Notes: generated by a model not told the origin, from the sequence alone. Counted from the stretch's first letter, positions 26,234 through 43,328 are shown. The stretch: 61,790 nt of DNA from Streptosporangiaceae bacterium (GCA_049284535.1 JBAPYC010001315.1:1-61790); one strand, 5' to 3'. Program-made: numbers and translations.

Positions 26234-27004
26234 CTACGACCGCAGATAACCGATACCGGCGGTGATCAGCCACGTCGCGGACTCGGAGGTGAGGTTCCAC
26301 GGGCGCGAACGCAGAACCTGGCGAAGGAGCTTACGGTCGGCCACCACGGGCGGCTCGCGTGGCAGGCGTTTCCTGAGCTCCCCGCCCTGTCCCCAGTGCG
26401 TGTCAGCCGGATCCTCAAGGGCCAGTAGCAGCCTGTCGACCAGGTCAGGCCAGCGGGGATGACCCCACCAGTGCGGGCAGGCCAGCGCGCCGTGCGCCGC
26501 GGTCCGCGCCATGCCGAAGCGCGCTCCCCGGCCGGCGGCTTGCCTAGCGAATCCTCCCAGCCGCAGGCTGGCATCGTCTTCGTACTCCGGCAGGTCACCG
26601 CGGGCAAGCTCGGCCAGCGTGACGCCGGTGATCAGCCTCCGGCTCGGGTTCACCAGCCACCGGAACACCCGGGTCGCGAGCCATTCGACATCCTCTGGGG
26701 CGACATCGTCGAGCGCCGATAGCGGCCCGGTGGCGGCCAGGCCGGTCTCTGTCATCCAGCGGTGCAGGATCTGGCGGGCACGCCAGGTCATATGGCTGCT
26801 GACCCGCATCATGTCGCCGTCGTGCAGACGGCCCTCGGCGTGCCAGTCCTCAACGCACGTGTTCCGCCATGCGCTGCTGACCAGCCCCAGCGCCGCCAGG
26901 TCAATGACCGGACCCAGCCTGCCCGGATCGATGACGCCTCGCTCGCGGAGCATTTCGGCGATAAGGCGTCCTCCATGGTCAGGGCTGAGCTCATCGGCGG
27001 TCAT
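26234..27004 (-). CDS. Hypothetical protein (no family recognised; contains one R-x5-H element)
   Basis: 256 aa, predicted mostly helical. WRARQILHRW is the only motif-like element. 42 nt downstream of the NTase-domain gene on the same strand. Confidence 0.5.
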   Translation of the reverse strand: MTADELSPDHGGRLIAEMLRERGVIDPGRLGPVIDLAALGLVSSAWRNTCVEDWHAEGRLHDGDMMRVSSHMTWRARQILHRWMTETGLAATGPLSALDDVAPEDVEWLATRVFRWLVNPSRRLITGVTLAELARGDLPEYEDDASLRLGGFARQAAGRGARFGMARTAAHGALACPHWWGHPRWPDLVDRLLLALEDPADTHWGQGGELRKRLPREPPVVADRKLLRQVLRSRPWNLTSESATWLITAGIGYLRS

Positions 27005-27046
27005 GGTTCACGCGTCCTGCCCCTGATTCCGCACGCCAGCACGCGC

Positions 27047-27910
27047 TCAGCCCCACGCAGCCTGATCCAGCTGCTGCCTGTCGAGGGGAACGATCCGCAG
27101 GCAGTCCAAGGGCCGGGTCCTGGTGGGATGGACCACCTCGAGCCATTCCGTGCCGCCGAAGGTCGTCAGGCATGCCCGGACCGGCCTGAAGTACCGCAAC
27201 CCGAACCCGGCGAAATACGGCGTTTCCCTGTCGCGGATATCAGCTCCGTGAAGATGGCAGCGGCCAGGATCGATGCCACGCTGTTCCCAGTAGCGGACGA
27301 CCGCCGTGGCCGCCCGGTGCAGCGGACTCGAGGGTTTCCACCGGCCCGCAAGGTGCTCTGCGGCGATACGGCTCGTGATCGGGCCCTCCGGTAGCACGAC
27401 GCGGTCAAGCCCGATGGCCTTGCTGCTGACAGCCGCGCAGAGGACCTCGCGATACGGGCGGGGCACCCATGCGTCGAGTCCTTCGAACTGCGGCAGCATG
27501 GAATCGCGTGGCGCCCGTCCCGCCGCAGGGTCAGCCTTGATCGCGTGCAGGCGTTTCAGCCCGGTAGCGAGGCTCTCGCCCCTGCGCCACAGCAAGGTCA
27601 GTTCGAAATCTGCCTGCTCGCGGAAGTTGAAGGTGAACTGGCAGTCACGTTTGCCGGTGGCGAGCCGCTGGCGCATCAGCGCGTTCGGATCGCGGCCGTA
27701 AGCAAGCGAAGTGACGAAATGCGAGCACCACTCATCGTCGTTCTCGTGCTCTACATCGATGTCGAGGTCATGCGGAGCCAGCGCGCCGCGGGCGAACGAG
27801 CCGAACAGGTAAACCTCGGTGACCAGGCTCAGCGGCCAGTCCTGCTGGCCGTCATGGGCACTTCGCAAGACATACTCGACAAGCCTGACGGCCCGGTCCC
27901 GCTGCACCAT
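27047..27910 (-). CDS. Nucleotidyltransferase-domain protein (minimal Pol-beta-type NTase N-terminus plus ~200-aa unknown C-terminal region)
   Basis: VYLFGSFARGALAPHDLDIDVEH gives the G-S-x9-D-x-D signature of MNT/Pol-beta-superfamily NTases. 287 aa. Confidence 0.6.
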   Translation of the reverse strand: MVQRDRAVRLVEYVLRSAHDGQQDWPLSLVTEVYLFGSFARGALAPHDLDIDVEHENDDEWCSHFVTSLAYGRDPNALMRQRLATGKRDCQFTFNFREQADFELTLLWRRGESLATGLKRLHAIKADPAAGRAPRDSMLPQFEGLDAWVPRPYREVLCAAVSSKAIGLDRVVLPEGPITSRIAAEHLAGRWKPSSPLHRAATAVVRYWEQRGIDPGRCHLHGADIRDRETPYFAGFGLRYFRPVRACLTTFGGTEWLEVVHPTRTRPLDCLRIVPLDRQQLDQAAWG

Positions 27911-28121
27911 TCGAGTCTGCCACGCCTAGCCCACCGTTACTGCCGAAAGTAAGCATATGATCACAGATGAGTAGTACCGGTTACGTCCGGGCGGCTGCTC
28001 CAGCGTACGAGCCCTTGCCAGGACCAGCCTCACCCGAAGGCGCCGCGATGCCTGGACGGCGAACGCCTGGAGACGGGTGAGCGCGACCGCGGGGCGCCCG
28101 GCGCGGAGCCTGCCGCCGCGT

Positions 28122-30410
28122 TCAACGATGCCGCCGCCGACCGCCCTTGCGCGGCCGGGCAGACCGTGACCTGGCCTTCTTCTTCCGATGGGGGGCGGTC
28201 ACCGTCGCCTGCGCTGCCGGGCGTGCACGGCGGGCCGCGTGCGCCACTTCGGGGTCCGGGTGCTGGGACAGCGGCCTTGCGAGGAGCGCGAAGGTGCCGG
28301 GCGCCGCGCGCGCGATCACGGCGAGCAGAGCCGTAGCACCGCCGGGCCAGCCATCCGCCGCGCGGTCGAAGGCTTCCCTCAGCTCTGGCGGCAGCCATGG
28401 GTCACTGCCGGGATCGGCGCTGGTCATCCGGTGAGCGAGGAACGCCGCGTGGCTCACCTCCTGGAGCTCGCCCGCAAGGAGCACGGCCCGGGCGGAGGCG
28501 GGCACGTCTGCCTCATCGGACGGGAGGCCGCGCAAGCGCAGTGCCCGCTCGGCGAAGGCTCCGATGACTCCGTCCGGCACGGCACCACGTAGCACCTCGG
28601 CCGGTGCGGCGCCGAGGTCGACCAGGCGCATCAGGTGCGCAGGCGCCAGTACCCTGTCATCGGACGGCGGCGCGCTCAGCGCAGGCAGGAGCGTCTCCCA
28701 GCCGGCCGCGCCGCGGGCCGCCAGCCAGTCGCGCAGCACCTGCCGCGCCGCCGCTTCCGGCCAGTTGCCGACGGCGCCGGCCAGCTGCCGGGCGTCCCAG
28801 GACAACCCCTCGTCCCGGGTCGGGAACGACGCCGCCGCCTTCTCGTCCAGTTCCGTCGTGCCCAGGATCAGCGCGTCGCGCACCAGCGCCGAGCCCAGCG
28901 GCGTCAGGGCGATCGCGTCACCGGCGCGGGTGGTGATGCCGAGCCCCGCCAGCCGGTCGACGACGCGAGCCAGCCGGGAGGCGGCGGGCTCGAGTTCTTC
29001 ACGGTCCTCCTCGGTGAGGCCGGGGATGCCGGTGAGCTGCGACAGAACCGGGATGGCGGGCAGCTGGTAAGGCCCGGCGTCCGCAGCGGGAGCATCGCGT
29101 GCGGCCTCAGTTTCCGGGGAGAGGATCCATTCCTCAGCCACTGCCGCCTGCCATGCCAGGGACTGCGGGATCCCGGCATGCTCGTAGAGGGAGTACAGCA
29201 GCAGCAGGTTCTCGCCGGGGAATTCCTCGGCGGTCTCCTCGTCCTGTACCATCTGGGCGAGCAGCGCGCCCAGCACGTCCAGGGCCAGTCCGGCCAGCTC
29301 GGCAGGCGTGCCCTCTGTCCAGATCTCGGCGGCGGTGCCGGGCAGCAGCAGGCCTTCCCCGCCTCGCCGCAGGAAGCCGCTGGCCAGCGTCATATCCAGC
29401 AGCGGCAGGTCAGCGTGTTCGGGGTCGGCGGCGGTCGCGGCTAGCGACGCGGGCAGCGGCGCCGCGCGGATGGCGGCGGCTACATCCTGGGCGGTAGCAG
29501 GCAGCGGCGCGGGAGCCAGCGGGACAACGCCGGGCCCGAACATCTCCAGGTGCGTGGTGGCGAGTTCCTCCACCACATCCAGCAGCGGTGCCGGCCGGTC
29601 CAGGCCAGGCGCGAGCCGGGTGGCCCGCCCGCGCAGCAGCGCGTCCAGCCCGGCCGCCGTCCAGCGGTCCGCCAGAAACCCGGCCTGGGCGTCAAACCAC
29701 AAGCCCGCGGCCTTCTGATCCTCCGTGTCCCGCGGGGCTCCCGCGACCAGCGGCACACTGTCGTGCCCGACCAGCCGCTCGCGCAGCACGACCGACTCCA
29801 GCCGGCGGGCTAGCAGCAGACGGGCCTGCCGCGAGCGCTCGCCGATCAGTGCCCGGACGAACGCCGCCGAGGCGAGCGGGACCACCCCGGAAGCGTCAGC
29901 GGCCGCCAAGCCGAGCGCTGGGCACCGCTGCGGGTAGGGACGGCCCGCCATGGCGTCCACCCAGGCGCCGACGGCCTGCGGATCGGCGGCGTCAACGCCT
30001 TCGGCGCGCAGCAACTGGCTGTACAGCCGCGCCCATGTAACGCGGCGCGGGCTGGTCATCGCCGACTCGAACTGCGGCCGCAGCGTCTCGACCTCGGCAA
30101 TGAGCCGGTCCCGCCGCTTGGCGTTGAGTTTGCCTGCCGCATGCGTGTGGCCGATGAGCGCGACCAGCACGGCCGGGTAACCGGCCAGATCGGCCGGGAT
30201 GGCGCTGACGTACAACGGCAGCAGGACGAGCATCAGCTCCTTCACCAGCTCAGCCGCTGGTTCAGGCAAGCCGGTGCGGCGCCGCGCCCCGGACAGCGCC
30301 AGCAGGCCGACAACGGCCTCAGCCGCCCGCGGCTCCAGTGGGTCGCCGTGCCGGCAACCCCAGTCGAGAAGCGGGGCGAGATCGAGGTTGAGAGGCGCAA
30401 TGCTGTTCAC
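28122..30410 (-). CDS. Large hypothetical protein (762 aa, Ala/Leu-rich helical, highly basic C-terminal tail)
   Basis: Long uninterrupted ORF with coding-like composition. The tail is PHRKKKARSRSARPRKGGRRRHR. No catalytic motif recognised. Confidence 0.55.
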   Translation of the reverse strand: MNSIAPLNLDLAPLLDWGCRHGDPLEPRAAEAVVGLLALSGARRRTGLPEPAAELVKELMLVLLPLYVSAIPADLAGYPAVLVALIGHTHAAGKLNAKRRDRLIAEVETLRPQFESAMTSPRRVTWARLYSQLLRAEGVDAADPQAVGAWVDAMAGRPYPQRCPALGLAAADASGVVPLASAAFVRALIGERSRQARLLLARRLESVVLRERLVGHDSVPLVAGAPRDTEDQKAAGLWFDAQAGFLADRWTAAGLDALLRGRATRLAPGLDRPAPLLDVVEELATTHLEMFGPGVVPLAPAPLPATAQDVAAAIRAAPLPASLAATAADPEHADLPLLDMTLASGFLRRGGEGLLLPGTAAEIWTEGTPAELAGLALDVLGALLAQMVQDEETAEEFPGENLLLLYSLYEHAGIPQSLAWQAAVAEEWILSPETEAARDAPAADAGPYQLPAIPVLSQLTGIPGLTEEDREELEPAASRLARVVDRLAGLGITTRAGDAIALTPLGSALVRDALILGTTELDEKAAASFPTRDEGLSWDARQLAGAVGNWPEAAARQVLRDWLAARGAAGWETLLPALSAPPSDDRVLAPAHLMRLVDLGAAPAEVLRGAVPDGVIGAFAERALRLRGLPSDEADVPASARAVLLAGELQEVSHAAFLAHRMTSADPGSDPWLPPELREAFDRAADGWPGGATALLAVIARAAPGTFALLARPLSQHPDPEVAHAARRARPAAQATVTAPHRKKKARSRSARPRKGGRRRHR

Positions 30411-30731
30411 CTGGGCAGCCTAACCACCCCCATGGCCAGCAATCCGTACATCAGATCAGCCAATTCCGCACGACACCGGGTGGCTGCCGTGACGACCGGT
30501 CCGGTCGGTCACTTGAGCGTGTGCGTCGCTCCGCTCATCACGGAAGGCGGCCCGGACCCGCCCGCACAGCCCAGCTGACGAAGCAGCTGGCTCATACCTG
30601 CCGTCCAGCCATAATAGGCCAGGCAATGGGTCAAATACCGAACACGCCGCTGGATAACCGTGGACGCTGGACCCGTACGCGTTACCCTTATTGCCTGATT
30701 TCCCTGATTCGGGGAAATCGCACCGGTTTCC

Positions 30732-30754
30732 GTGTTCAAGTCCCCCTCGGACAC
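30732..30754 (+). repeat. tRNA-Leu 3'-end remnant (att-like core), copy R1
   Basis: gtgttcaagtccccctcggacac versus the tRNA ggttcaagtcccccctcggacac (one C shorter). Confidence 0.75.
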
Positions 30755-30829
30755 ATCATCATGCATAGCCCTGACCTGCGGTCATCCGTTTCCCGGTGTG
30801 GGCAGGTGAGCAAGGCCGCAGGTCACAGT

Positions 30830-30856
30830 CATGGGGGTTAAGTCTCTCTCGGACAC
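30830..30856 (+). repeat. tRNA-Leu 3'-end remnant, copy R2
   Basis: catgggggttaagtctctctcggacac versus the tRNA catgggggttcaagtcccccctcggacac. Confidence 0.75.
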
Positions 30857-31418
30857 ATGCTTACGTATACGCTGACAGCCCATGCACGTGGCGGAACCTA
30901 CCCGGTGCTTCTGCACCTCATCAGCGGCCATGGCTTTATTCCGGTGTGCCAGAACACACATCTCCGCCCGTATCCTTTTCACCCGTAAGCGCAGATATGA
31001 ATCCGGCAAAGCTCTGACTTGGGATTCTTATCAGTCCACGCCATCGCCGGGGATTGACTATCGCCTGGCTGCCGGTCGTCGGCATGACTTGCAGTCACTC
31101 AGTGTAATGTGGCTCGTTTGCCTGGTCGACGGCGTTCTCGCAGAACGCTGACTCCGAGCTCGGCAGGCAGCGAACCGGTGAACCTGGCTGATCATCGTCG
31201 GCTGGCCCGAGCGCGCGTCCGCCGGGGATTGCGGAACATCCGCGCGAAGACCGCCCAGCCCGCCGGCGCACCGAAACCCCGGCAAACCCGGGCCCGGACG
31301 GCCGCCAGGCTCGAAAAACCGCCGCCCCATACCCGCCATGACGTGGGAAAACGACCAAGAGGGAACTCACACTCAAAGCAAGCCGAACGCTCAGGTTAAA
31401 CGACGAGCTCAGGCCATG

Positions 31419-32060
31419 TCATAGGAGATGACTGGTGTCGTTGACGCGCCTGACGGCAGCGAACTCATGGCCGTGCCATTGGATCTCGTTGATGCAGGCG
31501 GAGCCGAGGTACAACCGGTAGAGCGTGGTAAGCGGGACGTCGAGGGCCCGGCACAGCAGTATTTTTATCGGCGTTATGTGGCTTACCACCAGCACACTCT
31601 GACCGTAGTGGTCACGCAGGAGCCGGTCACAAGCCTGGTGGACCCTCTGGGCGGTGTCAGCGAAGCTTTCACCGCCCGGCGGTGCCTGCTCGGGATTGTG
31701 CTGCCAGGCGGCCACTGCTTCGGGCCATCGTTCCTGAATCTCGGCCAGGGTGAAGCCTTCCCATTCGCCAAAGTCCGTTTCCCGTAGGTCATCATCGGTG
31801 GCGGCGGTCAGACCCAATTCAGTGGCCGCGATGGCAGCGGTGGCGGCAGCACGCCGCAACGGTGAGGTGACAACGGCGTCGATCCGGGCGCCGGCGGCCA
31901 GCCGGCAGGCAGCGGCTCTGGCCTGCCGGGAGCCGTCGGCGCTGAGAGGCAGGTCGCACAGACCACTGAACCGGTGTTCTGGTGACATGCGGGTGTCACC
32001 ATGCCGCAGCAGGACCGTGATGGTGGGTTGTGCTGTGGGATTGGTCCAGCCGAGTGTCAT
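31419..32060 (-). CDS. Histidine phosphatase family protein (phosphoglycerate-mutase-like / CobC-like)
   Basis: ITVLLRHGDT (RHG catalytic motif)...VVTSPLRRAAATA...VLVVSHITPIK. 4-nt overlap with the upstream glycosyltransferase gene. Confidence 0.8.
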   Translation of the reverse strand: MTLGWTNPTAQPTITVLLRHGDTRMSPEHRFSGLCDLPLSADGSRQARAAACRLAAGARIDAVVTSPLRRAAATAAIAATELGLTAATDDDLRETDFGEWEGFTLAEIQERWPEAVAAWQHNPEQAPPGGESFADTAQRVHQACDRLLRDHYGQSVLVVSHITPIKILLCRALDVPLTTLYRLYLGSACINEIQWHGHEFAAVRRVNDTSHLL

Positions 32061-33064
32061 GGCAGCCCCGCAAGGATGGTGAAGAACTGTTGCGCTGATT
32101 GCTCCCAGGTGGGCAGGCTCCGGGCCCGGCAGGCCGCGGCGGCCCCCATCCTGCGGCGTTCGGGCTCGTCCTCGGCGAGTCTGCGCAGCGCACTGGCAAG
32201 CGCCCGGATATCGCCGGGCGTGATCACGATGCCCTGCTCGCCGTCGTCGACGAGATGTGGCAGGTTGCCGCAGCGCCAGCCGATCACCGGAAGGCCCGCA
32301 TCCATCGCTTCCGCAATGGCGGTACCGTACGTCTCCCAGCGTGAAACCGAGACGAACAGGTCGGCCGAGCGGTACAGATGCCCCACCTCGGCGTCGTCAC
32401 AGGGCCCATGCCGCACGACCCGGTCTGACAGGTCGCGCATCCGGCGGATCACGCGCCGCCCGTAGGCCGTGTCTGTCCGCTCGTCGCCTGCGAAGTGCAG
32501 GCGCAGCGTACCGGCCGGCACGGCGGCGGCTGCGTCCAGCAGCTCGAGGATGCCCTTGTTGGGCAGCCAGTTAGCCACGCACAGCGCAGCGGCTCGGGCC
32601 CCGTGCCGCAGGTTGCTGGCCTTCGTTCCCGGCTTCTGGTCCCGGCCAGGAGGCACGACAACGGCCTGATCAAACGAGCCGGTTAGCACTGCACCGGCGA
32701 CGATCACCGTTTCGCAGCGCTGGTAGAGGTATCGGTCCAGCCGGGCCTGTACCCATCGGCGGAGCGGTGCGTGATCGATTCCACCGGGCGGCTGATGAAC
32801 GATGGCGGCCAGCCGCCGCGGGCGCCGCAGAATTATCCACGGGGCCAGGAACGCCGCTGCGATGCTGTCGACCAAGACCACATCGGCCTCGCCAGCAGTA
32901 CGCAGCACCTGGTGGCCATACAGGTAGGGCAGCCGCGGTGGCAGTGACGCGAACGCGATTCGCGCGTCGTTACGCGGCGCGAGTTCGGCCATCTTCCGGT
33001 GGTACCGGTATCCGCCCGTCAGGGTAGCCGGGTCACCTAGGGTAATCAGGCATACCGTCAGCAT
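32057..33064 (-). CDS. Glycosyltransferase, GT-B fold, group 1 (GT4-like)
   Basis: ADLFVSVSRWETYGTAIAEAMDAGLPVIGWRCGNLPHLVDDGEQGIV (E-x7-E region). Start taken at MLTVCLITLG (33064). Confidence 0.8.
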   Translation of the reverse strand: MLTVCLITLGDPATLTGGYRYHRKMAELAPRNDARIAFASLPPRLPYLYGHQVLRTAGEADVVLVDSIAAAFLAPWIILRRPRRLAAIVHQPPGGIDHAPLRRWVQARLDRYLYQRCETVIVAGAVLTGSFDQAVVVPPGRDQKPGTKASNLRHGARAAALCVANWLPNKGILELLDAAAAVPAGTLRLHFAGDERTDTAYGRRVIRRMRDLSDRVVRHGPCDDAEVGHLYRSADLFVSVSRWETYGTAIAEAMDAGLPVIGWRCGNLPHLVDDGEQGIVITPGDIRALASALRRLAEDEPERRRMGAAAACRARSLPTWEQSAQQFFTILAGLP

Positions 33065-33468
33065 GGTGCGCGGTATCCGCCAAACGCGACCGGAGTCTCC
33101 CACACCCGTACCGCCAGCATGTCAGCGCCTTCCGTGGCCACAGCGGACGCGAGTGTGTCATGCACCCAGCGGGCGAACACCTCGACGGTGACCGCCTCAG
33201 CGCTGGCGGGCCGGATCTCCTCAAGGTTGCGCCCATCGATCCGCCCAGTCAGCTCGGTCATCGCCGCCTCCAGCACATCCAGGTCGCAGACCATGCCTCT
33301 TTCGTCCAGCCGCTCGCGGTCAACCACCACCTCGATTCGGTAGTCGTGATCATGCAGCTGACCCTCCGGACCCGGCAGTCCCGGCATGATGTGAAAAGCA
33401 CGGACACCCCGGCTCAGGCCCACTTCATATGTCACAGATCGCACTCCTGTCGTAGTCGAGAACGGCAT
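33058..33468 (-). CDS. 6-pyruvoyl-tetrahydropterin synthase / QueD-family protein
   Basis: AFHIMPGLPGPEGQLHDHDYRIEVVVD...GMVCDLDVLEAAMTEL matches the PTPS-fold pattern (s-A-a-H..., H-x-H-x-Y, m-v-x-D-f-x-x-L). The start could be GTG 33435 instead of ATG 33468. Confidence 0.7.
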   Translation of the reverse strand: MPFSTTTGVRSVTYEVGLSRGVRAFHIMPGLPGPEGQLHDHDYRIEVVVDRERLDERGMVCDLDVLEAAMTELTGRIDGRNLEEIRPASAEAVTVEVFARWVHDTLASAVATEGADMLAVRVWETPVAFGGYRAPC

Positions 33469-34405
33469 GCATCAGGCCGGGCGTGTTCTCGTCCACCGCG
33501 CGGAACGCCTCGGCGGCCTCACTGAAGGCGAACACGTGTGTGCATAGCTCTGGTAGCGGAAGCTCAGGCATCAGCTCAACGGCCTCCAGCCGGCGGCGAG
33601 ACCGCGGCCATGTCACGGACAGCCGGGACGGAACCGTGGAGACCTGGGTACTGCGGATGGTCAGGCGGCGGCGGTGAAAGGCGCCGCCGAGCGGCAACAC
33701 CACTGGTTTGGTGCCGAACCAGGACGCGACCAGCAAGGTGCCCTCGTGGGCCAGCATGTCCAGCGCCATGGCCGGTGCATCCGGGTTACCGCTGGCGTCG
33801 ATGACCAGCGCGACTTCCTCCTTCATCAGCTCCTCGGGTGCTGCGGCGGTGACGCCGAGGCTGCTGGCCAGGACACGCCGCCACGCCTGAGGTTCGGCCA
33901 GCAGCGGCCGCTGCCCCGAGCGCTGCAGCAGCAAGGCGGTCAGCAGCCCGAGTACGCCGGCGCCGAGCACGATGACCCGGTCGCGGTATCCCGTCCCGGC
34001 GTCGAGGGTCACCTGCAAGGCTGTCTCCACCAGCGGGAACAAGGTTGCGGACGCGGGATCGATGGCTGGAAGGGAAATCAGGTCACTGGCCCGCGCCGCG
34101 AATACGTCCTGATGCGGCTGGAATGCGAAAACCGCCCGGCCGGAGTCCGCTACTTCGCCAACACACGCATAGCCGTAAGGGAAGGGATAGCGGAAGGCGC
34201 CGCCAAGTGCGTCGATCGTGTTGTCCAGCGCCAGATCCTCAGGGACCTCGCCACGGTAAACCAGCCGTTCGGTGCCGCTGCTGATGCCGGAGAACAAGGT
34301 GCTGATAAGGACCTCGCCCGCCGCTGGCCGCGGCGTGGGCAGCTCCCTGATCTCCACGCAGCGCGGCGCGGTGTGAAACAGCGCGCGAGCGGGCACGCAA
34401 CGCAC
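33425..34405 (-). CDS. Medium-chain dehydrogenase/reductase (zinc-type ADH fold, BchC-like)
   Basis: GEVLISTLFSGISSGTERLVYRG...VIVLGAGVLGLLTALLL (Rossmann fold). Confidence 0.75.
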   Translation of the reverse strand: MRCVPARALFHTAPRCVEIRELPTPRPAAGEVLISTLFSGISSGTERLVYRGEVPEDLALDNTIDALGGAFRYPFPYGYACVGEVADSGRAVFAFQPHQDVFAARASDLISLPAIDPASATLFPLVETALQVTLDAGTGYRDRVIVLGAGVLGLLTALLLQRSGQRPLLAEPQAWRRVLASSLGVTAAAPEELMKEEVALVIDASGNPDAPAMALDMLAHEGTLLVASWFGTKPVVLPLGGAFHRRRLTIRSTQVSTVPSRLSVTWPRSRRRLEAVELMPELPLPELCTHVFAFSEAAEAFRAVDENTPGLMHAVLDYDRSAICDI

Positions 34406-34471
34406 CTACCCGCCGACAAACCTGGCGAAACGCCGCGGTTGATCACCGCCGTAGGAGGGTAGCGGACTTCC

Positions 34472-35827
34472 ATGGGCGAGCTTCGCGAGGCCGCGCGGGT
34501 CCAGCTGCCAACCGTCGCGGGCGAGTTCGACGTACGAGCATTCACCTTCGGATCGGGCTACGTCTACCTCGCGCTGATCAAGGGCGATCTCGGTGATGGC
34601 CGGTCGGTGCTGACCCGCGTGCACTCCGAATGCCTGACCGGGGATGCGCTGGGATCACTGCGCTGCGACTGCGGCGCTCAGCTCGACCTGGGGATGCGCG
34701 CACTTGCCGCCGAAGGGCGCGGAGTCCTGATCTACGCCACCGATCATGAGGGACGCGGCATCGGTCTGCTCGACAAGCTCCGCGCCTACATGGAGCAAGA
34801 AGCCGGAGCCGACACCGTCGACGCCAACCTACGGCTCGGGCTGGACCCCGACAGCAGGCGCTACGACAACGCCGCGGCTGTGCTGAAGGCCCTCGGCGTC
34901 CGCTCAGTCCGCCTGTCGACCAACAATCCACGCAAAGTCAAGGAGTTGCAGGCTGCGGGCATCACGGTTGAGGAAGTCATCTCGGTACCTGCCTTCCCGC
35001 ACCTGCGTAATCAGCGCTACTTGCGCACCAAGCAGGAGCGGTTCGGCCACGTAAATCTCATCGGCGATCCGCCGCCAGCCGAACGCGCTAGGCAGTCCAT
35101 AGACGTCGGTAGCCTGCTCGGTAGCGCGCAGGCCCCTGACAAGCGTCCGTTCGTCGTGCTGAAATACACCCAGACGCTTGACGGGCGGATCGCCGCCGCA
35201 ATGAGCGGTACTGGACCTGCCAGTGGCCAGGCCGAAAGCCGGATCTCGCACGCCCTGCGCGCCGCCTGCGACGCGGTGCTCATCGGCGTGGGCACCGTGC
35301 TATCTGACGATCCTCAGCTCACCGTGCGGGCGCTCCCTGCCCAGTCCCCGGCTCGCGTGATCCTCGACTCTCGCCTCCGCTCTCCGCTCAGCGCCGCAGT
35401 GTTCAGCCCTGACGCGCCCACGTATGTGATGACTGCCGCGCCCGCTGACCACCAGCGCAAGCGGCTGGCGCTGGCCGCACGTCACATCGCAGTCCGCGAC
35501 ATCCGGCCGGGGCCAGCAGGCCTGGACATCCCGGCAGTGCTGCATCAGCTCCGGACCGAAGGCATCCGGTCGGTCATCGTCGAGGGCGGGGCGCGTGTGA
35601 TCACCTCCATGCTGGCCGCCGGAGTGGTCGACAGGGTCATTGTTTCCATCTCACCGCAGATCCTTGGCCGCAGCACCGACGCGGTCGGCGAGCTACACAA
35701 AGAACGGATTGCCGACGGTCTCCGGCTAGACGGCCACACCGTCCACCTCATCGGCGCCACCATCATTGTTGCCGCCGACGTCGCCGGCCCCTCCGCGCTT
35801 CCACCGGACGGCAAGACCCCCCGCTGA
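34472..35827 (+). CDS. Fusion of GTP cyclohydrolase II and a RibD C-terminal (pyrimidine reductase) domain; no deaminase domain
   Basis: RVHSECLTGDALGSLRCDCGAQLD...DHEGRGIGLLDKLRAY (GCH II). Then RPFVVLKYTQTLDGRIAAA...LIGVGTVLSDDPQLTVR...VIVEGGARVITSMLAAGVVDRV (RibD_C). The C/H-A-E...P-C-x-x-C deaminase motif is absent. Confidence 0.85.
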   Translation: MGELREAARVQLPTVAGEFDVRAFTFGSGYVYLALIKGDLGDGRSVLTRVHSECLTGDALGSLRCDCGAQLDLGMRALAAEGRGVLIYATDHEGRGIGLLDKLRAYMEQEAGADTVDANLRLGLDPDSRRYDNAAAVLKALGVRSVRLSTNNPRKVKELQAAGITVEEVISVPAFPHLRNQRYLRTKQERFGHVNLIGDPPPAERARQSIDVGSLLGSAQAPDKRPFVVLKYTQTLDGRIAAAMSGTGPASGQAESRISHALRAACDAVLIGVGTVLSDDPQLTVRALPAQSPARVILDSRLRSPLSAAVFSPDAPTYVMTAAPADHQRKRLALAARHIAVRDIRPGPAGLDIPAVLHQLRTEGIRSVIVEGGARVITSMLAAGVVDRVIVSISPQILGRSTDAVGELHKERIADGLRLDGHTVHLIGATIIVAADVAGPSALPPDGKTPR

Positions 35828-36089
35828 CGCGGGGCACGCGTGACCTGGAGCACTTCACACGGCACTGACGGCGGAGCCGCTCTGGAGGTAGCCGGCTCGA
35901 CTTAATCGCCAGTTTCGCGGCTTACCCATATTTGGCCACCGCCGAAGCGACACAAGGGCCTTACGCCCCCGGTCACACGGAAGTCCGCGAGGTACTCATA
36001 CGGGCCCACCAGAACTAGCCGGTCCGCCCGCCCGCTTACCGCCACTCTCAAGCGCGAAATCGGCGGCCAGCGCGAACGGATGTGCAATT

Positions 36090-36112
36090 GGTTCGTCTCC
36101 GGCCTCGGACAC
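36090..36112 (+). repeat. tRNA-Leu 3'-end remnant, copy R2b
   Basis: ggttcgtctccggcctcggacac shows a T-loop-like GGTTCG and the CCTCGGACAC core. Confidence 0.6.
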
Positions 36113-36339
36113 AAATACCAGTGAGATTTCCCCAAATCAGACACCACTTGAACACGCGTGCCCGGGTGCTGCCCGCAGGCACCACGCCCGGCGGCCGGTC
36201 CCGCCGCCTCCTTCCGGGGAGGCGGCCGTGAGCGGCCAGCTCATCGCACCCGTGATCCCGCCCGATGCCGGGCCGGGTCGCGGCGTATCCCGCGGCCGGG
36301 GTGGCGGCGGTCCGCTGCCGCTGGCCAGCTCGCCTGTTG

Positions 36340-36690
36340 TACCGCTGGATGCGGTGTACCGGGTGAGCCCGGGTTGACGCTTCCCGCCGGGTGACCGGGC
36401 AGGTGATCACCCAGGTGCTGGGCTGACGAGCCGGTGACCGGCTGACCCTGACCGCCGACGCCGGGGTGGTGGTCGCGCGCCGCAACCCCGGCGGCATGGT
36501 CAGCGTGCTCGCGCGGCGCGCGGTCGCGATCCCGGCCGCGCTGCGGCACCGGTGCGGGCTCCGGGCTGGTGACCTGATGCTGCTGGCAGCCCTCGCAATG
36601 TCATCCGACCCGTGCCGCCGCGTTTCGCTCGGTGCGCGCCGGCAGCGCCGTGACGTCCGCAGCGCTCTTCAGCTGAGGGTCTACCGCTGC
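36340..36690 (+). pseudogene. AbrB/SpoVT-like small DNA-binding protein gene with an in-frame TGA and frameshifts
   Basis: ARVDASRRVTGQVITQVLG-TGA-RAGDRLTLTADAGVVVARRNPGGMVSVLARRAVAIPAALRHRCGLRAGDLMLLAA. The TGA at 36424 sits where family members have Trp (LGW). The frame also changes near 36364 and again after 36590. Confidence 0.5.
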
Positions 36691-36867
36691 CCGGTCGGCC
36701 TGGGATGGCACCTGACGTCCCGCCGGGCCCGCCGACCCCCTGACCGGCGGCCCGGCCGCGTCCCGCGGCACGAGCCCCGGCCACCCGACGCCGGGACTGA
36801 CTAGGCCGTACAGGCTCACATAACCGGCTTGATCCCTGGGGTATTCGACCAGAGGAGCATGCGACGG

Positions 36868-37376
36868 CTAGCAACGGGGCCAAGGGAACGAGCCGCAGAC
36901 TCCGTCGGTGGGAACGAGGAACTTACGGCCGGTCGAAGTCTCTGCCTGCAGCCAGGCGACTCTTAACCCAATGCCTACCGGGACTTGTCCTACATCCGAC
37001 CACCCCGACGCCACGTCCGTGATCAGGGCGTCGGCGAGGGCGGCGGCGGCGAACAGCATGGCCACGAACAGCAGGCCGCTGCCCTGGAACATGGTGGCGA
37101 GAACCGGTCCTCCCGTTGCCCGATCCGGTCCCGCGCGACCCCGATGAATCCCAGGAAGGTGATGCCGGCGATCGGCACCAGGTTCAGCGCGACGTCTATG
37201 GCGGTGCGGTGCGCCCCCTCTGTCAGCCACACGCCCGGACTGGCCGGGTTCGAAGGTACCGAGACATTGATAAGGACGAGCGCCAGGCTGAGCAGGAGCG
37301 AGAAGACGATTCCCGCGACGGCGGCGGCGCGGGGCGCGCGAAGGCCAGCGCCCGCTGTCCGTTCTTGGTCAGCCAT
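36868..37376 (-). pseudogene. Small multi-pass membrane protein gene split by a frameshift
   Basis: ORF 37023..37376 reads sensibly up to ...GFIGVARDRIGQREDRF. ORF 36868..37230 continues sensibly from ...ATMFQGSGLLFVAMLFAAAALADALITDV. The frame switches near 37085-37100. Confidence 0.5.
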
Positions 37377-37410
37377 GATGCGGTGCCTCCTCAGGGCCTC
37401 GGTCGGCCGG

Positions 37411-38874
37411 TTACGCGATCGTCCCGGACGGCGACGGCGAGGCGGCGGCCTGGACGGTGAACGGCGGGACCGCGGCCCCCGCGAGGAGGTTGGCGAGCGG
37501 TTCCAGACTGGACTGCTGATCGATGGTGAGTACGGTGCGCTCCAGGCGGTCCTGCCGGTCCGGTTTGATGACGCTCCGGGTGAGGTGGCGGTACTTGGTG
37601 ACGATTTCCTCGTTACTCAGGGGGGTCTGGTGGGACCGGGCGGCGAACTGGTACGACTCCAGATCGGAGCCGTCGGTGAAGTGGATGCGGAGCCTGGTCT
37701 GACCGTCGCCGCCGGGGCTGTCGAACGCGGGGTCGTGGCGGGCGGTGATCTTCGGGATCAGGTCCCACACGTCGTCGCGGTTGATGCGGTCCGGGGTGAA
37801 CTGATCCATCAGGGCATCACCGTCGATGAGGGCCGCGGCCAGCACGTAGGCGATGTTCATCTGGGCGCCGGTGGGGGTCAGCGGCCGCTGTGCCACCCAG
37901 CCGCCGTGGTTGTAGACGGACTCGGCGAGGTCGACGTCGATGCGGGCGATTTCACCGGCCTTCAGCGGCCGGGTGGCCGCGATCTGGAACAGGATGTCGA
38001 GCGCGGTGTGCAGGCCGCCCATGGCGGCGTACTGCTTGACGACGATGCTCTGCGTCTCCCACCGGTTCCCGAGCTCGCTAGTGACCTGGGCCGGGTCGGG
38101 ATCATGTCCCTCGCCGAAGGTCGAGAGCCAGCCACCGTAGGGCTGCTCGAACACCTGCTTGATGCCGGTGTAGCCGCCACGCGCCAGCACCGCCGCGTAA
38201 AGGCCGTTGCGGGAGGCCATGCCGTGGTGCATCCGCTTGCTCATGGCCCCGAACTGGGCTGCCATCAGACCGAAGGACTGGGTGGCGCCGAGGCCGAGCG
38301 CATCCTCCACCGCCGCCGCGTCCAGGCCCAGGAAGTTCGCAACGGCGGCGGCAGCCGCGAGCGTGCCGAACACGGACCCGGAGTGCCAGCCGCGGGTCAG
38401 CATCTCGGCGCCGTGCAGCGCCAGCCCGACCCGGGGCCCGGTCTCGTAGCCGATGATGACCGCGGCCAGGAACCGGGCGCCATCGGCGGAGGGGGCAAGG
38501 CGGGCGGCGGACAGCAGGGCGGGGAGGATGAGGGAGTTGCTGTGCAGCGGGGCGCCCGGGTGGAAGTCGTCCAGCTCGAAGCCCTGGATGAAGGTGCCGT
38601 TGAGCAGGGCGGCGCCGGGCAGGCTGGTGGTGGCGTCCCAGCCGATGAGCGGCGCGTCGCCCGCGCCTTCCAGGGCGATCGCCGCCTCGACCGCGGTGGC
38701 CGACCACGGCAGCCGCGCTCCGACGAGCGCGCAGCCGAGCCCGTCGAGGATCAGGTGCATGGCCCGTTCCCGTACGACGGGCGGGGCCTTGTCGAGGGTG
38801 AAGTCGGTGATCCAGCTGGACAGCTGGCCGGTTGGGCTGTCGAGGGCCGCGGGCTGGCCGGGAGCGGTTGGCAT
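37411..38874 (-). CDS. MmgE/PrpD-family protein (2-methylcitrate dehydratase / cis-aconitate decarboxylase superfamily)
   Basis: LSSWITDFTLDKAPPVVRERAMHLILDGLGCALVGAR...GTFIQGFELDDFH...WHSGSVFG. 487 aa. Confidence 0.8.
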   Translation of the reverse strand: MPTAPGQPAALDSPTGQLSSWITDFTLDKAPPVVRERAMHLILDGLGCALVGARLPWSATAVEAAIALEGAGDAPLIGWDATTSLPGAALLNGTFIQGFELDDFHPGAPLHSNSLILPALLSAARLAPSADGARFLAAVIIGYETGPRVGLALHGAEMLTRGWHSGSVFGTLAAAAAVANFLGLDAAAVEDALGLGATQSFGLMAAQFGAMSKRMHHGMASRNGLYAAVLARGGYTGIKQVFEQPYGGWLSTFGEGHDPDPAQVTSELGNRWETQSIVVKQYAAMGGLHTALDILFQIAATRPLKAGEIARIDVDLAESVYNHGGWVAQRPLTPTGAQMNIAYVLAAALIDGDALMDQFTPDRINRDDVWDLIPKITARHDPAFDSPGGDGQTRLRIHFTDGSDLESYQFAARSHQTPLSNEEIVTKYRHLTRSVIKPDRQDRLERTVLTIDQQSSLEPLANLLAGAAVPPFTVQAAASPSPSGTIA

Positions 38875-38884
38875 GGTTTCTCCG

Positions 38885-39427
38885 TTAGCGTTCGTAGGTG
38901 CCGTCGAGGCGGCCTCGGGCGAGCACCACGCCGCGCATGGCGGCGAGCAGGTCGCGCCGGGTGAACGACGGCCCGAGGGTCAGGGGCTGGCCGAGGGCGA
39001 AGAGCTGGAAGACGTAGGTGTGCGGGCCGTGGCCGGGAACTGGCCGTGGGCCGTCGTACGCGCTGTGCCCCAGCGAGTTGCGGCCGAGCCTGACTGTGTC
39101 GCCGGGGCTGAGCCCTCCTTCGGCCAGCTCGGGCGGCTCGGCTGGCAGGACGGCGAGGACGTGCGCGATGGGCCGCGGGAGCGGGGCGTCGCGGTCCTCC
39201 ACGATCAGGACCAGCTGCCCGGTGCCGTCCGGGACGCCGGACCAGTTCAGGGCGGGCGAAATGTTTCCCCCCACGCCGCGGCCGGCGTATCGCGCGGGGA
39301 TGGTGCCGCCGGGCCGGAAAGCGGGGCTGGACAGGGTCAGGGTGGCGGGCACGGCGCGAATGGCCGGGTCGTTGCCGGCGAGGTGCTTCTCGCCGGCCCG
39401 GACGGGCCGCAGCAGCTGGCCGATCAC
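38885..39427 (-). CDS. YbhB/YbcL-family PEBP (Raf-kinase-inhibitor-like) protein
   Basis: LTLSSPAFRPGGTIPARYA...ISPALNWSGVPDGTGQLVLIVEDRDAP...GPHTYVFQLFAL. Confidence 0.8.
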   Translation of the reverse strand: MIGQLLRPVRAGEKHLAGNDPAIRAVPATLTLSSPAFRPGGTIPARYAGRGVGGNISPALNWSGVPDGTGQLVLIVEDRDAPLPRPIAHVLAVLPAEPPELAEGGLSPGDTVRLGRNSLGHSAYDGPRPVPGHGPHTYVFQLFALGQPLTLGPSFTRRDLLAAMRGVVLARGRLDGTYER

Positions 39428-40806
39428 TGCTGGTACTCCGGGAGGTCAGCGAGCCACCTCAGCGCCGGCAAGCTGGGCACGAAAAGGTACTCGCCGCCGC
39501 GAAGCACATTGAACGTCTCGATCCCGTGGATGCGCCGCCTGACCGGCTCCTTCGGGATCGTGAACGTGGCCTGCTCTTTCGGCTGCAGCCCGAGCAGCGG
39601 GTCTCGTTCGTCATCCAGGCCCGTGAAGTTGCCGTCGTTGATCCACTCTTTCTGCAGGAACTCGATGGTCTCCATCGCGCGCGCAGCGAGGAAGATGAAG
39701 AAGATGCCGCGCGGAATCTCGTCGTCGTCCGATGAGGACGCATCCGGGTCATAGGGCGCGCCATAGGTGGTGCCGCGCCTGATGATGCGGTGGAGGTTCA
39801 CGTCGGTGAGCACCGCCAGGTTTGTATCGCGCGGATTCATGCGGCGCATATGAGCCCCGAACGGCACTTCCCTGCCATGCGGGTCGTTGGCGTAGGTGAA
39901 GTCGTTGTTACGCTGCGGGTCAGCGCCCAGCGCCGGGTCATCTTTTTCTGGCGCAAGGGTCAGTGGCGCGCCACTGCGCCATCTCCCCACCAGCTTCGCC
40001 GCGAGGAGCTCTCGCTCCTCGAGAGTCTGGGCGTTCTCACGCAGAAAACGGTTGAACGCGCCGACCCGCGACTGGTACTTGCGGATGCCCGCGAAGGTGC
40101 TATTGCGTCCGAGCACTTCCGGGTAGGGCATCGGATACGTCACCCCCGCTTCGCCGGGGTACCCGAGGATGAACTCCCCGGCCTTGATCGGCCGGCCCTG
40201 TCCGGGCAACGGATCGGCTCCGCTGCCCTCGATGGCAGGCTGGCCGATCAGATCCTTGTAGCCGAATGAGTTCCGGTCATCGGGCTGAGCGCCGAAGTCC
40301 TGCGCCATCAGCACGGTGACGCCCGGTAGTTCCCCGAACTGGTGCCGCACAGCCGCCAGGGCAGTGCGCCACTTGTCCGGGGAATCGCTGAAGATGCTCA
40401 CCCCGATATGGATGTCTCCACTCCCGAACGGCTGTTCCCAGTGCTTCGGATCGTTCGCTCCGTAGTCCGAAAGCTGCTCGGCCCGCGCAGCCATCCCTTG
40501 CCGGAACGAATCCGGGAAGCTTCGCAGCGAGTCCTCCGGAACCCCCAGTGCGGTCAGGCCGGTATAGCTGAGGGCGACGGAGGTCCACGTGTCGCGGGCC
40601 TGCCACCACTCGGCGGCAGAATGGATGTGCGGGGCCAGTCTCCGCAGCAGTTCACGACCCGCGTGCGCGTCGTCGAAGTGCCCCAGGATGTGCGTGCCGT
40701 AATAAGGTTCGGGCCGGTAACGCAGCACCGCGGCCTGAATGTCGTCAAGCTCGACGGTGACGGCACCGCGTCGAAGCCGCCCGCCTGGACGATCCGGTAG
40801 GGCCAT
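39424..40806 (-). CDS. Dye-decolorizing (DyP-type) peroxidase
   Basis: LDDIQAAVL...SFGYKDLIGQPAIEGSG...FGAHMRRMNPRD (proximal His / GxxDG-region context). ATGA overlap with the PEBP gene. Confidence 0.8.
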   Translation of the reverse strand: MALPDRPGGRLRRGAVTVELDDIQAAVLRYRPEPYYGTHILGHFDDAHAGRELLRRLAPHIHSAAEWWQARDTWTSVALSYTGLTALGVPEDSLRSFPDSFRQGMAARAEQLSDYGANDPKHWEQPFGSGDIHIGVSIFSDSPDKWRTALAAVRHQFGELPGVTVLMAQDFGAQPDDRNSFGYKDLIGQPAIEGSGADPLPGQGRPIKAGEFILGYPGEAGVTYPMPYPEVLGRNSTFAGIRKYQSRVGAFNRFLRENAQTLEERELLAAKLVGRWRSGAPLTLAPEKDDPALGADPQRNNDFTYANDPHGREVPFGAHMRRMNPRDTNLAVLTDVNLHRIIRRGTTYGAPYDPDASSSDDDEIPRGIFFIFLAARAMETIEFLQKEWINDGNFTGLDDERDPLLGLQPKEQATFTIPKEPVRRRIHGIETFNVLRGGEYLFVPSLPALRWLADLPEYQQ

Positions 40807-40846
40807 GGTTACCTCCGCACGAGCCTCGACGGGATCCGCAGGACGG

Positions 40847-41485: not shown

Positions 41486-41614
41486 CTTTTTCTCCTTGAT
41501 CTTCCGGGCGCCATCAATGCCTGAGGGCACCTGCCGGGGTGATTTGACACGTGGTGATTAGCCAGTGATGCGGGAACGGTCAGAACCCGGCGGCCGGTCT
41601 GTGGCCGGGCTGTT

Positions 41615-42814: not shown

Positions 42815-42823
42815 CCTCTCCCC

Positions 42824-43318: not shown

Positions 43319-43328
43319 GGTCGTCTCC

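Follow-up and report, generated by a model that had tools for sequence, protein, structure and literature searches.

A sporadic five-gene cassette of soil actinomycetes predicted to build a glycosylated, probably pterin-type heterocycle from GTP

Introduction

Pterins, flavins and deazaflavins all start from the ring opening of GTP, and the textbooks describe few branch points in this metabolism. What is made, then, by a compact set of genes that joins a riboflavin-type GTP opening to a pterin-type enzyme and a glycosyltransferase? The question is raised by positions 31419-35827 of a 61,790-nucleotide stretch of DNA from a Streptosporangiaceae bacterium (GCA_049284535.1, JBAPYC010001315.1:1-61790), here called the window. 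The cassette encodes a GTP cyclohydrolase II (GCH II) domain fused to a RibD C-terminal (RibD_C) reductase domain, a medium-chain dehydrogenase/reductase (MDR), a T-fold protein of the 6-pyruvoyl-tetrahydropterin synthase (PTPS)/QueD type, a GT4 glycosyltransferase and an RHG histidine phosphatase. An earlier note on this DNA had read the five genes as a self-contained unit for a glycosylated pyrimidine-, pteridine- or flavin-related compound. Here, we compare the cassette with curated protein families, solved structures and related loci. On balance, we favour an accessory, horizontally exchanged pathway that leads from GTP to a glycosylated heterocycle keeping its 2-amino group, most likely of the pterin type.

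Results

An open reading frame (ORF) scan of 31419-35827 returned five intact genes in two divergent units spanning 4.4 kb, the same overlapping operon and divergent fusion gene that had been described before. The fusion (451 aa) occupies 34472-35827 on the plus strand. The minus strand carries the MDR dehydrogenase (33425-34396, 323 aa from GTG 34396, longest ORF to 34405), the T-fold protein (33058-33435, 125 aa from GTG 33435, longest ORF to 33468), the GT4 glycosyltransferase (32057-33064, 335 aa from ATG 33064, longest ORF to 33103) and the histidine phosphatase (31419-32060, 213 aa). The later starts of three genes were taken from a public gene call on the source contig (ENA ERZ25039470 contig_2515, 574 kb, from a soil metagenome), and the called positions 33064, 33435 and GTG 34396 agree with the N-termini of homologues. 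With these starts, neighbouring genes of the operon overlap by 4, 7 and 11 nt. The divergent gap of 66 nt given previously holds for the longest ORF and becomes 75 nt when counted from GTG 34396.

Pfam bore out every domain call of the earlier note, that of the MDR protein on weaker scores, and the motifs quoted there (RVHSECLTGD..SLRCDCG in the fusion, RHG in the phosphatase) were found in the translations. Among functionally defined families, curated thresholds were reached only by generic GCH II and RibD_C models. All five genes are under purifying selection, with dN/dS values of 0.08-0.23 against three intact copies (L004, L054 and L001); the fusion gave 0.21-0.22 and the MDR gene 0.08-0.22. 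Third-position GC is 0.72-0.81 in the cassette and 0.85 and 0.92 in the flanking genes. No membrane protein or CDP-alcohol transferase was recognised in this or the other full cassettes from ORFs and Pfam matches, no transmembrane predictor having been run. An anti-phage defence system was considered and rejected: the PADLOC models gave no meaningful match for any of the five proteins, and the match to Pfam 'GT4-conflict' was marginal (29.2 bits).

The first two enzymatic steps can be read from the fusion. Its GCH II domain (aa 8-170, nt 34493-34981) matched PF00925 at 3.9e-55 (186.4 bits, cut-off 23.3), and its RibD_C domain (aa 226-408, nt 35147-35695) matched PF01872 at 1.1e-41 (143.3 bits, cut-off 24.1). 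The fusion passed the RibA model NF001591 (207.8 bits, cut-off 148) and TIGR00227 ribD_Cterm (163.9 bits, cut-off 150.15), and it fell just under the stricter RibA model TIGR00505 (192.9 bits, cut-off 205.85). The Cys triad that holds zinc in GCH II is kept, SEC..RCDCG aligning with E. coli RibA, as does KLRAY, whose Tyr corresponds to E. coli Tyr105; the Streptomyces paralogue has KLRAM. Spoonamore et al. reportedly found (Biochemistry, 2006) that the change from Tyr to Met makes the S. coelicolor GCH II paralogues stop at the formylamino product. Because the zinc site is intact and the Tyr needed for deformylation is present, the GCH II domain is predicted to open GTP to 2,5-diamino-6-ribosylamino-4(3H)-pyrimidinone 5'-phosphate (DARPP).

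In the second step, the fused RibD_C domain would reduce DARPP with NADPH to the ribityl compound, in the archaeal and fungal order. The solved reductases closest to it are DARPP reductases (6p8c, 2azn), ahead of bacterial RibD. Orthology with the archaeal-type DARPP reductase was rejected, since the equivalog model TIGR01508 scored 125.6 bits against a cut-off of 186.45. A bifunctional bacterial RibD was excluded as well: the N-terminal CMP/dCMP-type deaminase domain is absent, and the linker between the two domains has only 55 aa, too short to hold a deaminase. The fusion had been described as lacking this domain, in agreement with the Pfam search, in which no deaminase family matched any of the five proteins at E <= 0.01. 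As no deaminase acts, the 2-amino group would be retained.

These features also fit a fusion that serves as a housekeeping source of riboflavin or F420 precursors beside four unrelated genes, for its GCH II domain is of the canonical Tyr type and its RibD_C domain passes the riboflavin-type domain cut-off. The Pfam search of the cassette found neither a deaminase nor DHBP synthase, lumazine synthase or riboflavin synthase, which argues against such a role, and the gene neighbourhoods described below add to this.

The MDR protein is the weakest domain call of the five. Pfam ADH_zinc_N scored 28.3 bits (cut-off 31.8), and the nearest curated family, TIGR01202 bchC, matched aa 9-303 with an E of 2.4e-23 and 82.7 bits, far under the equivalog cut-off of 291.25, so a true BchC (bacteriochlorophyllide dehydrogenase) was rejected. 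The best PDB matches were L-arabinitol 4-dehydrogenase (1.7e-8) and then threonine dehydrogenases. A zinc-dependent MDR alcohol dehydrogenase was rejected too, because the Cys, His and Glu zinc ligands are missing; inspected by eye, GISSGTE and YGY stand at the ligand positions. The Rossmann motif GxGxxG (GAGVLG) is followed by an acidic residue and therefore suggests NAD as the cofactor. A signature of SxGTE, YGY, PH, GxGxxG, SWxG, FH and SQV is invariant from actinomycetes to haloarchaea. Matches in Sinorhizobium, at 25-30% identity, were too weak to be placed in the same family.

In the pathway that we propose, this BchC-like, NAD-type enzyme would oxidise one of the secondary hydroxyls on the ribityl chain. 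If the 2'-OH were oxidised, a 2'-keto (Amadori) compound would arise, and its closure onto the 5-amino group would give 7,8-dihydroneopterin 3'-phosphate. GTP cyclohydrolase I reaches the same 2'-keto compound by an Amadori rearrangement. A precedent for GCH II feeding pterin synthesis comes from Chlamydia, where RibA and TrpF lead to dihydroneopterin monophosphate (PMC4161248). A dihydropterin intermediate formed by MDR 2'-oxidation and ring closure is conceivable for the cassette, and we hold it with more doubt than confidence.

The T-fold protein matched PF01242 PTPS with 80.3 bits (E 1.5e-22, cut-off 22.4). True QueD orthology was rejected: the equivalog TIGR03367 scored 48.4 bits against a cut-off of 89.25, and in the alignment with E. 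coli QueD, Cys27 is replaced by Glu and His71 by Gly. The zinc-binding residues H26, H39 and H41 and the ring-anchoring E124 are conserved, as are H, E-x3-H-x-H, D and WE in alignments of the family. A family profile searched against the PDB matched 3d7j best (7.7e-18, 67.9 bits, positions 1-124), with QueD at 46 bits and PTPS at 31-41 bits; no P. falciparum or other PTPS-III structure was returned at E <= 0.01. The entry 3D7J, deposited as uncharacterised, is the T-fold protein SCO6650 of S. coelicolor. The T-fold accommodates a wide range of purine, pterin and pyrimidine rings, with a Glu anchoring the 2-amino-4-oxo ring. The Glu at the position of the catalytic Cys recalls PTPS-III by analogy. 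The protein might bind the 2-amino-4-oxo ring through its Glu and, as a zinc enzyme, either aid ring closure or remodel or cleave the side chain.

The last two genes appear to act as a pair. The GT4 enzyme matched PF00534 Glycos_transf_1 at 5.3e-27 (94.9 bits, cut-off 26.4) and Glyco_trans_1_4 at 2.1e-26; it is of the retaining GT-B type, with an E-x7-E motif (WETYGTAIAE in the translation) and a divergent N-terminal acceptor domain. Its best PDB matches were sucrose-phosphate synthase (SPS; 6kih, 7.6e-17), then MshA and BshA. The tetrahydrobiopterin glucosyltransferases 5zer, 5ze7 and 9v0l matched in the C-terminal domain at 1e-5 to 3e-5, ranking 15th or lower. The earlier note had likened the pairing of PTPS and GT4 to that of cyanobacterial pterin glycosides. 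The shared fold stands, whereas matches of about 1e-5 are too weak for close kinship with known pteridine glycosyltransferases, which we rejected. The phosphatase belongs to branch 1 of its superfamily (PF00300 His_Phos_1, 1.3e-58, 198.3 bits; LLRHGDT). Among curated families, it comes closest to the acid-phosphatase half of PRK07238 (247.9 bits) and to CobC (148.1 bits); with the CobC equivalog cut-off at 162.9, a true CobC (alpha-ribazole phosphatase) was rejected. PDB matches comprise PspA, PhoE, CobC and glucosyl-3-phosphoglycerate phosphatase (GpgP).

Dephosphorylation had been placed before glycosylation in the earlier note. The reverse is more likely by analogy with synthase/phosphatase pairs, because the best PDB relatives of the GT4 enzyme (SPS, MshA, BshA) use phosphorylated or acidic acceptors, the relatives of the phosphatase include GpgP and CobC, and the start of the phosphatase gene overlaps the GT4 stop by 4 nt. 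The GT4 enzyme would thus glycosylate a still-phosphorylated intermediate, from which the translationally coupled phosphatase would take off the phosphate. The same logic is known from the synthesis of sucrose phosphate, mycothiol and glucosylglycerate.

The kinship of the phosphatase with CobC, whose substrate carries an N-linked ribose 5-phosphate, also bears on a different product, a monocyclic ribityl-diaminopyrimidine or an 8-ribityl pteridine or flavin analogue, with the MDR and T-fold enzymes acting elsewhere on the ribityl chain. Only steps 1 and 2 are read directly from the sequence, and the range of rings bound by T-fold proteins would accommodate such a product. We consider it unlikely, since the cassette contains no lumazine synthase, DHBP synthase or other donor of carbons for a second ring, and free 2,5-diamino-6-ribitylaminopyrimidinone is, by general chemistry, very reactive and a poor candidate for an end product.

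We then turn to the behaviour of the five genes as a unit. In blastn comparisons with six other full copies, similarity of 79-96% began at 31407-31424, at one outer stop codon, and ended at 35787-35835, within about 40 nt of the other, and the flanks were unrelated in every one of the six. Because the homology is confined to the genes and does not extend into the flanks, the cassette behaves as a discrete unit placed, or kept, in different genomic settings, which upholds the description of it as self-contained. The domain architecture of the fusion is itself common: all of the best 120 clusters at 90% identity (59-100% identity to the fusion) carry both domains, so that at least 120 such clusters exist.

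Neighbourhood counts rest on small samples, namely 12 locus look-ups and 80 MDR loci. In six of seven distinct loci with 59-100% identity to the fusion, the MDR, T-fold and GT4 genes (the last in one or two copies) adjoin the fusion, and five of these six also have the phosphatase. The seventh (L102, 7044-8000) carries an internal deletion between an intact phosphatase and an intact fusion, so that 29 aa from the end of GT4 and 37 aa from the start of MDR are all that is left between them. Decay of the cassette is seen in L102, in L078 and perhaps in L040 and L065; many of the related metagenome-assembled genomes (MAGs) are long-read assemblies, and the frame disruptions in L040 and L065 may be sequencing errors. 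Two of the loci lie on one 2.34-Mb contig (CAWIMN010000007.1), which carries the three-gene form described below (L064) together with a decayed full form (L078) whose fusion is absent and whose GT4 gene is cut short. The cluster look-ups returned metagenome-derived proteins only and no cultured carrier of the actinomycete cassette. The recurrence of gene content and order in many genomes agrees with the expectation that the five genes co-occur outside the window. In actinomycetes, the cassette is most likely accessory, horizontally exchanged and sporadic.

A scan for MDR relatives, limited to one genome per species, gave 214 relatives, of which the best 80 were examined. All 80 belong to MAGs from soil or peat that are labelled Streptosporangiaceae or uncultured Actinomycetes. 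Five of them carry the full cassette, two the cassette without the fusion, and 73 a three-gene form of MDR, T-fold protein and phosphatase. In a neighbour-joining tree of the best hits, built without bootstrap, the three-gene form makes one tight clade inside more divergent full-cassette lineages. At 62-66 of the 73 three-gene loci, the phosphatase is followed by a membrane protein of 820-940 aa with a CDP-OH_P_transf domain, and at 30 of the 73 an SRPBCC protein and a methyltransferase precede the MDR gene. In one example (L005, 9110-11578), the CDP-alcohol phosphatidyltransferase domain forms the N-terminus of an 822-aa membrane protein, whose C-terminal part of about 350 aa had no sequence match in Pfam or the PDB.

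The core of the cassette is not confined to actinomycetes, the setting in which the earlier note had proposed a survey and in which the neighbourhood does recur; it also occurs in low-GC bacteria and, as unfused genes, in haloarchaea. We searched 1.84 billion cluster representatives at 50% identity, considered the best 150 matches and looked up five fusions. Among the best 150 were about 30 full-length fusions at 35-57% identity. The fusion was linked to MDR and/or T-fold genes at four of the five loci looked up (35-44% identity, 36-62% GC). L105 (36% GC) has fusion, MDR, T-fold and GT4 genes in one direction; L106 (36% GC, on a 1.75-Mb contig) has the fusion and a T-fold gene, accompanied by a HAD phosphatase and an MDR-like gene that runs convergently; L108 (56% GC) has the fusion and MDR; and L109 (62% GC) has fusion, MDR, T-fold and methyltransferase genes adjoined by two integrase genes. 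The fifth fusion lies on a 2.2-kb contig with no partner gene in view. The GCH II Tyr is kept in all distant fusions looked up, and the T-fold motif E-x3-H-x-H in L105, L106 and L109.

A purely housekeeping fusion is hard to reconcile with these neighbourhoods. The fusion stays with MDR and T-fold genes over 35-100% identity and 36-73% GC, and the site of the block varies between genomes. The fusion adjoins only five of the best 80 related MDR loci, and the cassette has decayed in the loci named above. Judged from the window and the related loci, we regard that role as very improbable.

The genome of L106 (1-6761) encodes an ankyrin/HEAT-repeat protein of at least 2740 aa, which hints at a host-associated bacterium. 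The trio stands alone in this low-GC genome, and here it could be imagined that fusion, MDR and T-fold protein replace FolE, and perhaps FolB, in folate synthesis, GT4 and phosphatase being secondary additions. Glu-type PTPS paralogues replace FolB. In Chlamydia, folate is made by way of GCH II (PMC4161248). A folate bypass is therefore conceivable for low-GC carriers. As an account of the cassette it is highly improbable: no folK, folP or folC lies beside any copy inspected, the sporadic and mobile occurrence in actinomycetes is unlike an essential vitamin pathway, and folate synthesis has no use for a glycosyltransferase.

Annotated records of plasmids and megaplasmids showed unfused modules in more distant carriers. 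Streptomyces fungicidicus plasmid p1 has genes for a CDP-alcohol phosphatidyltransferase, MDR, T-fold protein, GT4, methyltransferase, creatininase-family protein and an unfused ribA. Methylosinus trichosporium OB3b and Neorhizobium combine MdoH, MDR, T-fold protein, GT4 and a hypothetical protein, to which Methylosinus adds a RibD-family reductase. A Microbacterium plasmid encodes a CDP-alcohol transferase, MDR, T-fold protein, GT4, methyltransferase, an LPG-synthase-type membrane protein and a RibD-family reductase. In four haloarchaea, MDR is accompanied by GTP cyclohydrolase IIa or a creatininase-family gene, and in three of the four by a CDP-alcohol transferase. Compared with the window proteins, MDR is 37-42% identical, GT4 26-31%, the haloarchaeal T-fold proteins 28-35% and the reductases 33-35%; the Streptomyces and Methylosinus T-fold proteins have also lost one zinc His. 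The creatininase-family (deformylase-like) gene stands beside the Met-type GCH II of Streptomyces and is missing beside the Tyr-type enzyme of the window, which fits the formylamino product attributed to the former.

The haloarchaeal riboflavin route reduces before it deaminates. Because the modules of Methylosinus and Microbacterium add a deaminase-less reductase and the haloarchaeal ones only a cyclohydrolase, we infer from this handful of loci that ribityl-diaminopyrimidinone phosphate is the committed intermediate. Pairs of GCH II and reductase in Ralstonia and in Streptomyces sp. BHT-5-2 were not counted as this module, the MDR and T-fold genes being absent. In the Ralstonia solanacearum megaplasmid (L104, 5815-7241), GCH II and a deaminase-less reductase lie beside DoxX and a TetR regulator, and in BHT-5-2 (L103, 7001-8499), GCH II is next to a deaminase-less pyrimidine reductase; in both, the two opening steps may be put to yet another uncharacterised use.

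The CDP-alcohol transferases of the unfused and three-gene loci bring in the strongest rival, that the product is the polar head group of an envelope lipid or glycoconjugate. On this view, a polyol phosphate derived from GTP would be joined to a lipid or glycan and then lose its phosphate, by the logic of phosphatidylglycerol phosphate and phosphatidylinositol phosphate, and in the window GT4 would replace the CDP-alcohol phosphatidyltransferase. Such transferases accompany the unfused genes in Streptomyces, Microbacterium and three haloarchaea, with an LPG-synthase-type protein in some and MdoH in Methylosinus and Neorhizobium; the membrane protein with the CDP-OH_P_transf domain beside the phosphatase recurs in most of the three-gene loci, and the relatives of GT4 in the PDB include the phosphatidylinositol mannosyltransferases PimA and PimB. 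The window cassette and the other full cassettes, however, carry no membrane protein or CDP-alcohol transferase, and our survey, which used no transmembrane predictor, marked none of the five as a membrane protein. We also know of no lipid with such a head group. A lipid head is therefore a less probable product, though a serious one. For the window cassette itself, a soluble glycoside is more likely than a lipid, membrane genes being absent, and the two may be different endings of one pathway.

Control and expression were considered next. The divergent intergenic region (34397-34471, 75 nt) contains GGGTAG 9 nt before both start codons, at 34457-34462 for the fusion and at 34406-34411 on the minus strand for MDR, with TTGATC between them at 34439-34444. 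Both GGGTAG motifs and TTGATC are conserved in all nine aligned cassette copies. They may be back-to-back promoters for leaderless transcripts. No sigma-70 or terminator consensus was matched, and Rfam gave no riboswitch or other RNA at E <= 1 in 30000-37500, with nothing in 31100-31420. Permafrost metatranscriptome contigs of 95-97% identity cover GT4, MDR and the fusion and suggest that the cassette is expressed in nature.

Just past the last stop codon of the operon, about 50 non-coding nucleotides (31278-31327) had matches of about 90% in all four metatranscriptomes tried. Their depth, up to 21, lies above that of the cassette genes, and the contigs run into similar but diverged sequence. 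This element has no Rfam match, folds no better than shuffled sequence and is single-copy in the window.

The cassette had also been described as bracketed by tRNA-end remnants. The single tRNA gene of the window is tRNA-Leu(GAG) at 10651-10736, and its 3' end, except for the last base, is the decamer CTCGGACACA, which occurs at 30746, 30848, 36104 and 56178 (4 copies, 0.21 expected). The contexts of all copies align with the tRNA end. One remnant, CATGGGGGTT-AAGTC-TCTCTCGGACACA, lies at 30830-30857 on the plus strand, outside the cassette; a second aligns to the tRNA-Leu(GAG) 3' end at about 30737-30755; and a weaker tRNA-3'-end-like remnant, GGTTCGTCTCCGGCCTCGGACACA, lies outside the cassette at 36090-36113 on the plus strand, where homology ends about 255 nt earlier, at 35835. 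The repeats are thus real, and they are not the ends of the cassette, whose homology stops at 31407 and 35835. A tRNA-bounded island as the vehicle of the cassette was rejected: homology ends inside the repeats, no tRNA was found within 5-8 kb beside any of the six other copies, and no integrase or any Pfam domain was recognised in the cassette flanks of the window. The four decamers suggest repeated integration downstream of tRNA-Leu(GAG), with successive insertions that add up to about 45 kb; no integrase was seen among the genes scanned.

The DNA that separates the tRNA from the cassette encodes a resolvase-type serine recombinase and an AbiEii-type nucleotidyltransferase toxin, at 21768-22388 (minus strand) and 25255-26127 (plus strand), followed by three ORFs without a Pfam match (26234-27007, 27047-27925 and 28122-30410, the last of 762 aa). 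Downstream, 37411-43435 on the minus strand holds MmgE/PrpD-family, PEBP-family, DyP-type peroxidase-like and DUF4331 genes, which are unrelated to the cassette.

Discussion

Our analysis suggests with fair assurance that the cassette turns GTP into a small molecule that is glycosylated and not deaminated. That this is the work of an accessory, horizontally exchanged pathway with a pterin-type product is the reading we favour on balance. The class of the end product (pteridine, pyrimidine or other) is inferred from the enzymes that the five genes would encode. The domains and the unity of the cassette described in the earlier note have stood, whereas its tRNA ends and its order of dephosphorylation before glycosylation have not. 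It had also named no characterised pathway with this gene set, and in our searches neither annotations nor open-access papers gave a product for any version of the cassette.

More tentatively still than the dihydropterin intermediate, fusion, MDR and T-fold protein may form a GTP cyclohydrolase I-independent route to dihydropterins, with lineage-specific tailoring into new pterin conjugates. A reduction at C1' followed by an oxidation at C2' would then replace the Amadori rearrangement. Tailoring would fall to GT4 and phosphatase in the window and to methyltransferase and CDP-alcohol phosphatidyltransferase elsewhere, where a pterin-headed lipid might result.

Several points weigh against the pterin-type pathway. 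In most related Streptosporangiaceae genomes, neither the fusion nor GT4 accompanies the trio of MDR, T-fold protein and phosphatase, which adjoins a membrane protein with a CDP-alcohol phosphatidyltransferase domain, and this setting, together with the membrane-associated genes of the wider module, points toward an envelope or lipid product. The preference of the reductase for a 2-amino substrate is deduced from the ranking of its relatives, with TIGR01508 below its cut-off. The catalytic Cys/His pair of PTPS and QueD is missing from the T-fold protein, and its likeness to PTPS-III is an analogy. Substrate and regiochemistry of the MDR enzyme are conjecture on our part, and reduction at C1' followed by oxidation at C2' looks roundabout when GTP cyclohydrolase I exists. 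DNA carry-over could explain the metatranscriptome contigs.

The core, present in distant bacterial lineages and in archaea, is an old, successful and nameless piece of metabolism. Many annotations as 'zinc-binding alcohol dehydrogenase' or '6-carboxytetrahydropterin synthase' are probably wrong, and identification of the product would assign a function to these proteins. The version in the window is the handiest for experiments: all five genes are intact, they fit into 4.4 kb with a divergent control region of their own, and none was recognised as coding for a membrane protein.

Compared with known systems, the cassette looks like a further branch of GTP-derived metabolism, in which riboflavin-type opening and reduction are used, deamination is skipped and the product passes to a dehydrogenase and a T-fold enzyme. 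The nearest described system is the SCO6650-6655 type cluster of S. coelicolor, with SCO6655 as the GCH II paralogue, which we examined through the equivalent cluster on S. fungicidicus plasmid p1. To our knowledge, this cluster, with a solved structure and a characterised cyclohydrolase, has had no assigned pathway since 2006-2008; a GTP cyclohydrolase I-independent route, if true, would explain it too. It has MDR, T-fold and GT4 genes in the order of the window with GCH II nearby, the identity being 40% for MDR and 31% for GT4, and its T-fold structure is the best profile match. It differs in several respects. Its GCH II is a separate protein with Met for the Tyr of the window, accompanied by a creatininase-family gene; the T-fold protein lacks one zinc His and has Ala for Glu; a CDP-alcohol phosphatidyltransferase and a SAM methyltransferase are added; and there is no histidine phosphatase, nor a reductase within 7 kb.

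The first two reactions and their order are those of archaeal and fungal riboflavin/F420 synthesis, which starts with GCH II or III and continues with the ArfC/Rib7 DARPP reductase before deamination, and the closest solved reductases belong there. In the window, however, the two activities are fused, the reductase falls below the TIGR01508 cut-off, and no deaminase, lumazine synthase or riboflavin synthase follows. Pterin glycosides of cyanobacteria and Chlorobium are made by GTP cyclohydrolase I, PTPS, sepiapterin reductase and then a tetrahydrobiopterin or pteridine glycosyltransferase. The cassette shares with them the pairing of a PTPS-fold enzyme with a Glycos_transf_1-type GT-B enzyme and the kept 2-amino group; unlike them, it starts with GCH II and a reductase and has no sepiapterin reductase, its T-fold protein lacks the catalytic Cys, and the tetrahydrobiopterin glucosyltransferases rank far behind SPS and MshA.

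Pribat et al. are said to have found in 2009 that Glu-type PTPS paralogues replace FolB. In its Glu at the QueD/PTPS catalytic Cys position and its kept zinc site, placed by alignment with QueD, the T-fold protein of the window may resemble PTPS-III, to which it is no close relative in sequence, and the catalytic His is missing from it as well; the product of PTPS-III is 6-hydroxymethyl-dihydropterin (PMC4674097). The folate bypass of Chlamydia turns the GCH II product into a pterin without GTP cyclohydrolase I, at the monophosphate level (PMC4161248). There, an isomerase carries out the Amadori step, whereas the cassette would arrive at that ketone in two redox steps, by reductase and dehydrogenase. 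The SPS/SPP, GpgS/GpgP and MshA/MshA2 pairs have in common with the cassette a GT4-type enzyme followed by a dedicated phosphatase and supply the best structural relatives, although the acceptor in the window would be a GTP-derived heterocycle with a polyol phosphate in place of a sugar, glycerate or inositol phosphate. What is distinctive in the cassette is its compactness, the fused first steps, the zinc-retaining Glu-type T-fold protein and the ending in GT4 and phosphatase.

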